From positions 1 through 56,858 of the forward strand of contig JAHJHG010000005.1 of assembly GCA_018823885.1 (NCBI GenBank): 56,858 bases of DNA. The letters are read 5' to 3'. The position numbers and the translations under genes are program-made. The notes below the pieces were generated by a model that made no database searches, was not told the origin of the DNA, and was given only the letters and a program-made list of their open reading frames with translations. This DNA comes from Patescibacteria group bacterium. GTDB taxonomy: Bacteria; Patescibacteriota; Microgenomatia; UBA8517. How positions within the stretch are numbered: position 1 is the stretch's first letter; the number at the start of each line of letters is the position of its first letter. Positions 12,598-14,390 of this stretch are shown here, piece after piece.

Positions 12598-13245
12598 TTA
12601 TTTATTTGTAATTATAGGTAGGATGTGTTTTCGAATAAATGTATATAAAACGGCAATCATTCCAAACCAAAAAATATAAACAAAGAATGTACTGATCACA
12701 TCCGTACCTACAAACCATGCGTGTGCTGCTATTAAGAAAAATACAAAATAATTTAAAATATGAAATTTACGCCAATTTTCTTTCCACCAAACTTCATTTT
12801 TAACTATTGCCGCCAAGATAGCGAGAGATATAAGCCAAAAGGTAATTCTGCCGAAACTATAATAAAGCTCAATCGGCCTTGAACAGAGAAGACAAAAGTC
12901 AGTAAAGACATAAAAGGGATCGAGTACACCTCTTGTTTTGAAATTATAAATAAGAAATAGAAGAGGGTGTACCAATACCAATACGTAAGCAACAAACCCT
13001 TGAATTAGATGAAATTTAAAAATCCACGCTCCAAATTTTTCTTTCCACTTCTGCATAAATGCCCCGAGAATAATTTGCACAAACAATAAACTAAAAACAA
13101 CTAATCCTAAAATCCTTTGAAAAATATTAATTAAAAGAGGAACATTCTGGGTAATATCAAAAACTTTGACTGACTTTAATACAGCAAAAGGGCCTGACAA
13201 TAAAATAATAAACCATATAATAATAAAAGAAAGTTTTGATTTCAT
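12598..13245 (-). CDS. Ferric reductase-like transmembrane domain protein (MsrQ/Ferric_reduct family, no flavin domain)
   Basis: About 6 TMs with paired His residues (FHLIQG, VHP, FHILNY, AHA) spaced as in heme-b-binding ferric reductase TM domains; W..LH-like motif. Confidence 0.75.
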   Translation of the reverse strand: MKSKLSFIIIWFIILLSGPFAVLKSVKVFDITQNVPLLINIFQRILGLVVFSLLFVQIILGAFMQKWKEKFGAWIFKFHLIQGFVAYVLVLVHPLLFLIYNFKTRGVLDPFYVFTDFCLLCSRPIELYYSFGRITFWLISLAILAAIVKNEVWWKENWRKFHILNYFVFFLIAAHAWFVGTDVISTFFVYIFWFGMIAVLYTFIRKHILPIITNK

Positions 13246-13272
13246 GAGTAATTATTTGAAGTATACCAGAAG

Positions 13273-13354
13273 AAAAAGGGACTTACGGGTGGAGCTTGAG
13301 AGATAATGTTTCAAACTATACGGTGTTATACCGCAAGTCTTCTCAAGCCCCACC
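13273..13354 (-). ncRNA. Structured 3'-UTR element or terminator with two competing helices
   Basis: 14-bp stem (13341-13354 with 13288-13301, one G-U pair) and 8-bp stem (13332-13339 with 13280-13287), followed by a U-tract at 13273-13277. Confidence 0.55.
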
Positions 13355-13364
13355 TTTGTCGCAC

Positions 13365-13652
13365 CTACCCCGAGAGAGAAGCCAAAACCGCTGTTGAAGA
13401 TGCTATCATCATTGCTATTACGGCAAGTAGCAAGAGGCTATTGGTACGCTTTCTAGCGCTGTCATCTGAATTAGATAACATTGCAAAAACGTACATAATT
13501 AGTGAAATCACAAAAGAAAGTGAAAACACAACATCTAAAACGAAAGCCCAAGTCGAAACGTCAGGATCTGGTAATTTCCTGTACAAATGGATCGACGCAG
13601 TGGCAATCACTATTAGTGCAATCACAGCTAATAATATGCGTTTCTTGTCCAC
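13365..13652 (-). CDS. Small hypothetical membrane protein (3 TM)
   Basis: 95 aa, three hydrophobic segments, GTG start preceded by perfect Shine-Dalgarno AAGGAGGT. Confidence 0.75.
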   Translation of the reverse strand: MDKKRILLAVIALIVIATASIHLYRKLPDPDVSTWAFVLDVVFSLSFVISLIMYVFAMLSNSDDSARKRTNSLLLLAVIAMMIASSTAVLASLSG

Positions 13653-13674: not shown

Positions 13675-14211
13675 TTATGCAGGTCTTGCTCTCACGTAGA
13701 GTGCAAGTATAGAATTCGAGCGCTTGTTGATTAATCTTTCTCGTTTCGTTAGATGATTCAAGGAGCGCCTAAGCTCGGCGAGTTCTTTGTCAAATTCGCC
13801 GACTAATTTTTCATACTCCTTCTTGAGTTTGTCATACTCCGCCCCAATCTCTTCAAAAGCCAAGGATGTTGTTAATCTCTCCTCAGGCTTTTGGCCTTTC
13901 ATGATAAAAGCAAGCTGCATCTGTGCATCAACTTTAAGCTTGAAAAGTTGAGTTATTCTTCTTATTTCTTGGTTTTTCTGATCGGCTTGCTCCATCCTCA
14001 ATTCAAGCGCCGTCATTTCCATACCTATCTTGCGTAATGTTGTGGCACATCGATGTAAATACTTCTTCGCTTTTATGAAACGAAGAAAAAATGGGCCATA
14101 CTTCTTCCATATTCTCTTTGACATCACATTCTTACTGAAAGCAGCCCATATGTGGAAAACAAGCACAAATACTAATACCACAGCCAAGTAAGACAGCAGT
14201 TGCGTGAACAT
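13675..14211 (-). CDS. Hypothetical membrane-anchored coiled-coil protein
   Basis: N-terminal TM, heptad-rich body, SD AAAGGAG, consensus promoter upstream. Confidence 0.75.
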   Translation of the reverse strand: MFTQLLSYLAVVLVFVLVFHIWAAFSKNVMSKRIWKKYGPFFLRFIKAKKYLHRCATTLRKIGMEMTALELRMEQADQKNQEIRRITQLFKLKVDAQMQLAFIMKGQKPEERLTTSLAFEEIGAEYDKLKKEYEKLVGEFDKELAELRRSLNHLTKRERLINKRSNSILALYVRARPA

Positions 14212-14270
14212 TTTCTTTTCTCCTTTAAGGTGCGAATTTTTGGAATTAGTCTCTTTATCAGACTTGCAGA

Positions 14271-14299
14271 ATTATATAATTCTAGAAGACAAAAGTCAA
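14271..14299 (-). promoter_or_regulatory. Sigma70-type promoter TTGACT-N17-TATAAT with a 16-bp palindrome over the -10 box
   Basis: -35 at 14294-14299, -10 at 14271-14276; perfect palindrome AGAATTATATAATTCT at 14268-14283. Confidence 0.75.
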
Positions 14300-14316
14300 A
14301 CTATGGGTTATGAATG

Positions 14317-14390
14317 TGGTCGTGACAGGACTCGAACCTGTGGCCTCCGCAATGTGAATGCGGCGCTCTAGCCAACTGAGCTACACGACC
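14317..14390 (-). tRNA. tRNA-Val (anticodon CAC), CCA not encoded
   Basis: GGTCGTGTAGCTCAGTTGGCTAGAGCGCCGCATTCACATTGCGGAGGCCACAGGTTCGAGTCCTGTCACGACCA folds into a full cloverleaf; anticodon arm CCGCA-TTCACAT-TGCGG. Confidence 0.97.

Follow-up and report, generated by a model that had tools for sequence, protein, structure and literature searches.

The element described here lies on the minus strand of contig C5 of a 756 kb genome that is 98% complete; this contig, with its full length of 56,858 nucleotides, is referred to as the window. The host is an ultra-small groundwater bacterium (Woesebacteria), and its relatives are Candidatus Woesebacteria. All features of the window described below are on the minus strand. 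Approximately 1.07 kb lies between a tRNA-Val(cac) gene (14316-14390), the sole tRNA found here by ARAGORN, and a ferric-reductase-like gene (12598..13245), and this interval holds a promoter, two open reading frames and a hairpin. The predicted cassette promoter, a strong one (TTGACT-17-TATAAT), occupies 14299..14271, with its TATAAT at 14276-14271. It is followed by an ORF of 178 amino acids (13675..14211), with an N-terminal TM segment and a coiled-coil-like region, and by a small membrane ORF of 95 amino acids (13365..13652), the last gene ahead of the hairpin. No family match was obtained for either ORF; across 60 related genomes, the 178-aa protein has a single match, a weak one (E = 6.6e-5). 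The ferric-reductase-like gene has its ATG at 13245 and encodes a transmembrane protein of 215 residues of the MsrQ/YedZ type (PF01794), which scores 27.8 bits against this family, for a curated cutoff of 28. Fourteen nucleotides ahead of the ATG is a predicted extended -10 box, TGgTATACT (13260..13268; hexamer 13260-13265).

The same interval was surveyed in approximately 50 loci (L020-L069) that bear a homologue of the ferric-reductase-like gene. tRNA-Val(cac) is found upstream in about 36 of them, and in all but four of these it has the orientation of the gene. In approximately 20 loci, 0-8 nt separate the end of the tRNA from the start codon and a -10 box is missing; presumably, processing of the tRNA makes the 5' end of the mRNA, and the message would be leaderless or nearly so. 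Where a spacer or an insert of 0.3-2 kb intervenes, a TGnTATACT or TATAAT box is observed 11-21 nt ahead of the start. The locus in the window, with its insert and TGgTATACT, belongs to this separated class, and inserts of 0.3-2 kb are present in the interval in approximately eight other lineages. In L056 and L057, a canonical terminator is located at the end of the insert, just ahead of the -10 box. In L058 (AMFJ01022584.1, approximately 2300-2400), a second, partial tRNA-Val-like sequence is positioned just upstream of the intact tRNA-Val; this copy is broken in the D-loop region and has a T-run at its end.

Sequence and fold of the element

The TAG stop codon of the 95-aa ORF (13367-13365) is followed, after a gap of 10 nt, by the 5' arm of helix P1, GGTGGGGCTTGAGA (13354-13341). 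A single A leads to segment b, GACTTGCG (13339-13332), which had been proposed as the 5' arm of a second helix, P2. A stretch of 30 nt, which includes a small inner hairpin, CGGT/ACCG (13333-13321), lies between b and the 3' arm of P1, TCTCAAGCTCCACC (13301-13288). Directly adjoining this arm is segment b', CGTAAGTC (13287-13280), the proposed 3' arm of P2, and next come CC and TTTTT (13277-13273). The T-rich run as a whole, TTTTTCTTCT (13268..13277), sets in 10 nt past P1. As far as the sequence goes, the preliminary description of the element was accurate: P1 has 14 bp and P2 8 bp, each with one G-U pair, the linkers are 1 nt and 0 nt long, and the inner hairpin (13321-13333), the CCUUUUU tail, the strand and the 10-nt distance from the stop codon are as described. 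P1 is not a random occurrence: by chance, 0.2 pairs of a 14-mer and its inverted copy would be expected per window. A search of the genome found the element in a single copy.

Using RNAfold, the minimum free energy (MFE) structure of the sense strand is one long hairpin (13288..13354) of -41.9 kcal/mol (z = -4.1; none of 200 shuffles is as stable). The antisense strand gives z = -2.5 in the same shuffle comparison. The basal part of the hairpin is P1, with pair probabilities of 0.96-1.0 in the ensemble. The apical part pairs AGACU with AGUUU and UGCGGU with ACCGUA, a fold that consumes b inside the loop (its partner is 13313-13324). Below P1, the stem continues in a weak outer extension, formed from UGCG/CGUA and GGGG/CCCU, that reaches the U-run. 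This extension is interrupted and contains approximately 7 pairs, and it is the sole means of placing the base of a helix beside the U-run, whose onset lies directly at it.

The element was compared in four sequences, namely the window, L046, L048 and L049, of which three are independent, too few for statistical covariation; the MAFFT alignment prepared for RNAalifold was out of register. L046 (protein 81% identical) shares both the cassette and the element, the latter with two substitutions in the 5' half, both G to A. One changes the G-U pair of P1 to A-U, and the other changes a G-U pair of the inner helix to A-U. The element is 99% identical in these two sequences, which is not above the background of 95-97% for the pair. 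In L048 (66%), the basal stem is kept with one double change of G-C to A-U and two U.U mismatches. Its apical hairpin is also kept, with a G-C to C-G change, and the 3' internal loop is missing. L049 (60%) carries different small membrane ORFs and a related stem, GGGG.AGGCUGAGAGC/GCUCUCAGUCUCCCC, capped by another apical hairpin. In all four sequences, the sense strand folds more stably than the antisense strand, and the G-U pairs are in the sense stem.

Searches over a wider range returned nothing further. In the 60 related genomes, BLASTN gave chance matches only, and the three best of these, inspected by eye, are without the hairpin. The two arms, taken as exact patterns, had 0 matches in 185,579 species genomes, and a protein-guided scan of the same genomes found none closer than 54% identity. 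The element has no family match in Rfam, either at the gathering threshold or at E values up to 10; the tRNA-Val was the sole match of these scans.

Boundaries of the insert

The state of the locus before insertion can be seen in L047, whose ferric-reductase-like protein is 71% identical. In this empty site, a near-identical tRNA-Val is located approximately 41 nt upstream of the ferric-reductase-like gene and is followed directly by CCGCAAGTTTCTTTCCTTCTGATATACTT, the orthologue of b' together with the U-run and the -10 box. The trailer of the L047 tRNA, CCGCAAGT, aligns with b' at a score of 37, and 0 of 3000 shuffles are as good (copy 2 versus trailer). The empty site therefore indicates that b' and the U-run go back to the ancestral trailer of the tRNA and to promoter DNA, and that P1 and b came with the insert. 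A different origin of b', as a paralogue of the inner arm, has no statistical support (p = 0.58, J1 versus copy 2).

At tRNA genes, the ends of genomic islands are marked on one side by the regenerated tRNA and on the opposite side by a repeat or a displaced fragment (Islander, PMC4383910). The insert resembles them in that it starts right past an intact tRNA-Val (14316-14390), a relative has the empty site, a direct repeat is present at both ends, and the same tRNA-Val site bears different inserts elsewhere. It is unlike them in that the repeat does not belong to the tRNA, the insert measures only about 1 kb, and it contains no integrase gene. The hairpin could be read as a recombination scar at the DNA level, that is, as the right-end attachment-type site of an insert beside tRNA-Val that is now without an integrase. 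Its palindromic and repeated pieces would then reflect the architecture of a recombination site and serial insertions rather than a function of the RNA.

What speaks for such a scar is found at both ends of the insert. The left copy of the direct repeat, ATAACCCATAGTTTGA (14296..14311), lies 5 nt past the 3' end of tRNA-Val and holds the -35 hexamer of the cassette promoter; the right copy, ATAACACCGTATAGTTTGA (13311..13329), is inside the hairpin, where it supplies the loop and the 3' strand of the apical helix. The repeat, ATAAC(A)CC(GT)ATAGTTTGA, matches at 16 of 19 positions (p = 0.002-0.016), and its occurrence in the interior of the hairpin and at the other end of the insert suggests, for part of the sequence, a scar at the DNA level. 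There is also an inverted match of 15/20 between 13328-13347 and 14253-14272. The repeat is, however, outside the tRNA and missing from the empty site L047. The exact junctions of the insert share CCAC alone, and CCAC is likewise the only unambiguous match to a 3' fragment of the tRNA at the far end, which a gapped alignment extends to 10/14. Through the inverted match, the start of the cassette mRNA, predicted to lie just past TATAAT (14276-14271), is complementary to the b region of the hairpin at 15 of 20 positions.

Comparison with relatives bears on the same question. The inserts of 0.3-2 kb in other lineages favor recombination at this site, as does L026 (G009:C1), in which 13 nt of the tRNA-Val 3' end, CAGGTGCGACCAC, recur as a displaced copy 354 nt downstream of the intact tRNA. 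This copy, just ahead of the ferric-reductase -10 box and approximately 25-40 nt upstream of the start, is a classical island scar. In the window (13356-13364), L046 and L048, AGGTGCGAC is positioned right ahead of the hairpin; BLAST places the short matches to the G009 scar (AGGTGCGAC, AGTTTGAAA) at chance level. When the window is compared with L046, the DNA of the 178-aa ORF is 97% identical, and that of the 95-aa ORF is 65-70% identical with flanks of 95-99%. Along this alignment, the only drops, to 65-75% nucleotide identity, are at 13366-13630 (the 95-aa ORF) and at 12598-12870 (the 3' half of the ferric-reductase-like gene). These blocks of divergent sequence point to allele replacement by recombination, with one putative breakpoint at the hairpin, where the first block stops.

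The remaining evidence argues against the scar. No integrase (PF00589) is found on the contig of the window, and the two tyrosine recombinases of the genome are elsewhere, on C1 and C6. The G-U pairs of the stem favor the transcribed strand. An integron attC site was considered and rejected: the R''/R' cores (RYYYAAC ... GTTRRRY) are missing at the base of both P1 and P2. We regard such a scar as unlikely, if still worth weighing. A recombination site would also be compatible with a role as terminator, and a hairpin at the end of a transcript possibly overlaps such a scar.

A probable hairpin at the end of a transcript

Other genes of this genome end in similar structures. Among 719 rough gene calls, there are 104 stems of at least 10 bp located after a stop codon; in several, the stem has 12-18 bp with few G-U pairs, and the T-run is short or offset. 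Such hairpins include GGTGGGGAGAACTGAAAG (or GGTGGGGAGAAC)...CCCCACC AGATTTTTT on C1, after C1:143556-143948, and TGGTTACCACCAGTT.../ATCGTTTTT after C9:213972-214745. The element is one of this class of post-stop hairpins.

It shares several properties with intrinsic terminators. It is a stem-loop of -41.9 kcal/mol on the sense strand, 10 nt past the TAG of the last gene, with a T-rich run after it and a position ahead of the next promoter. Its G+C-containing stem is conserved in form while the sequence drifts. It differs from them in the unusual length of its stem (14 bp and 11 apical pairs), in an interior of 39 nt, and in a U-run that has only 5 U and starts 10 nt past the main stem; termination at this position is a prediction. 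The placement of the U-tract also varies among the homologues. In the window, UUUUUCUUCU follows 10 nt after P1 and touches the weak outer extension; in L048, the hairpin continues directly into AAUUUUUUU, the form of a canonical terminator with a U7 tail; in L049, there is no U-run. Among Rho-independent terminators there are also non-canonical ones, in which the hairpins are long or clustered and the U-tracts weak (PMC8355165).

Taken together, we think it probable that the element is a single static stem-loop that ends the transcript of a small accessory operon, acting as a terminator or as a 3' stabilizer. The operon, located between tRNA-Val(cac) and the ferric-reductase-like gene, would be transcribed from its own promoter through the 178-aa and 95-aa ORFs. 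On the mRNA, 13354-13288 would fold as one hairpin, with a weak basal extension to the U-run, and this hairpin may act as an intrinsic terminator or protect the 3' end. Transcription would end, or the transcript be processed, at this position, so that the hairpin would separate the cassette transcript from the ferric-reductase-like gene. The latter would start from its own extended -10 promoter, predicted just downstream. P2 would be a by-product, having a 3' arm that is the ancestral tRNA trailer and a 5' arm that is already used in the hairpin.

The genome encodes both Rho and RNase III; the hairpin could thus terminate transcription alone, protect a 3' end made by Rho, or be processed. The element may be an RNase III site, or it may protect the transcript against exonucleases after Rho-dependent termination. 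The long and near-continuous stem (14 + 5 + 6 pairs) would suit a nuclease specific for double strands, and the U-run lies at a distance from the main stem in the window and does not occur in L049. The canonical U7 tail in L048 argues the other way. Seen from the sequence, these roles are indistinguishable from the terminator or stabilizer that we prefer, and we judge a function that excludes intrinsic termination to be unlikely.

A further reading combines the boundary of the insert with the fold. The hairpin may be the folded right boundary of an exchangeable cassette beside tRNA-Val that doubles as a recombination site; the promoter-bearing left end and the hairpin at the right end would be kept, and the genes for small membrane proteins would be swapped between them. 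We consider both parts of this proposal, the double role of the hairpin and the exchange of genes between conserved ends, to be quite improbable.

The proposed alternating helices

The preliminary description had proposed that P1 and P2 alternate, forming a conditional terminator, riboswitch-like element or novel ncRNA that gates read-through into the ferric-reductase-like gene. The arrangement is suggestive: as in attenuators and riboswitch expression platforms, interleaved complementary segments are located beside a U-run, and P2 has 8-9 bp. We asked if the two helices could exchange. In isolation, P1 has a stability of -23.4 kcal/mol and P2 of -7.9 kcal/mol. The linkers of 1 nt and 0 nt rule out a pseudoknot, and the best structure that contains P2 (-27.3 kcal/mol) carries a penalty of 14.6 kcal/mol relative to the MFE fold. 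The two alternatives are thus not of comparable stability, and the pair probability of P2 in the ensemble is 0.0. In growing transcripts, b is fully paired at lengths of at least 70 nt, before the 3' arm of P1 and b' are synthesized. The penalty, the zero probability and the early pairing of b leave no thermodynamic or kinetic route between two states unless an outside factor intervenes.

The complementarity of P2 itself is marginal against chance. A duplex between loop and tail at least as stable as P2 is obtained in 12-14% of dinucleotide shuffles; if P2 is counted as 9 bp by sharing the last C of P1 (-14.7 kcal/mol), only 2.3% of shuffles match it, which is in its favor, as is a post hoc test (p ~ 0.004) in which the b region pairs over 10 bp with the trailer of L047. 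The homologues do not bear it out. In L046, the second substitution turns a G-C pair of P2 into A.C; it weakens P2 and at the same time improves the hairpin. An equivalent of P2 is missing from L048 and L049: their best duplex between loop and tail is no better than in 45-62% of shuffles. The hairpin is therefore conserved in form across L046, L048 and L049, with changes that preserve pairing, and P2 is not, a comparison that comprises three independent homologues. The apical sequence is not conserved, and the Rfam scan is without a match. In contrast to attenuators and riboswitch platforms, neither the alternative helix nor an aptamer-like core is conserved. Finally, the -10 box of the ferric-reductase-like gene, predicted and conserved, is downstream of the element, which is accordingly outside the leader of this gene. 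From its own promoter, the gene is not transcribed through the element. A two-state switch is thus very unlikely. Of the proposed control of read-through, a plausible part stands, namely that a hairpin of the terminator type limits transcription from the upstream ORFs into the ferric-reductase-like gene; the conditional part does not.

It is hardly credible that the element is a tRNA-like mimic or decayed tRNA, in the former place of the tRNA, that provides a signal for RNase P/Z ahead of the ferric-reductase mRNA: its stem resembles the acceptor of tRNA-Ala with a G3.U70-type pair, AUAGU-UUGAAAC-AUUAU could be drawn as a T-arm-like structure, the CCACC end of the hairpin coincides exactly with the position of the L047 tRNA-Val 3' end, and in the approximately 20 relatives with abutting genes the 5' end of the mRNA is presumably a product of tRNA processing, but ARAGORN finds only tRNA-Val, RF00005 has no match in 13150-13450 at E values up to 10, there is no significant similarity to the 46 tRNAs of the genome (best-of-all p = 0.43), GGU-ACC pairing buries the would-be cleavage site, and the predicted promoter of the ferric-reductase-like gene is downstream. 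The stem in question, 13288-13351 read from the fourth base, is GGGGCUU/AAGCUCC followed by A-CC. Because the G.U is lost in L046, where it is A3-U70, and no tRNA model matches, the resemblance to a tRNA-Ala-type acceptor is probably coincidental. An origin from a decayed tRNA, tmRNA or tRNA-Ala was rejected: the tmRNA is elsewhere (C9:1509-1881), the tRNA-Ala genes of the genome begin with GGGCC, and no similarity is significant. Separately, ARAGORN reports at G000:C9:116003-116090 a Ser-like tRNA with a long arm and an irregular anticodon loop, as 'tRNA-???(gg)'.

Returning to the probable static hairpin at the end of the cassette transcript, a terminator-type structure is of little importance in itself. 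It does illustrate how an elegant "switch" of interleaved helices can arise where inserted DNA meets an ancestral tRNA trailer. If the hairpin did bound an exchangeable cassette, it would represent an integron-like or cis-mobilizable system that operates in ultra-small bacteria without a local integrase. For the Woesebacteria, insertions recur in the interval from tRNA-Val to the ferric-reductase-like gene, and this gene is presumably read directly off the tRNA transcript where no insert is present and from its own, predicted promoter where one is.
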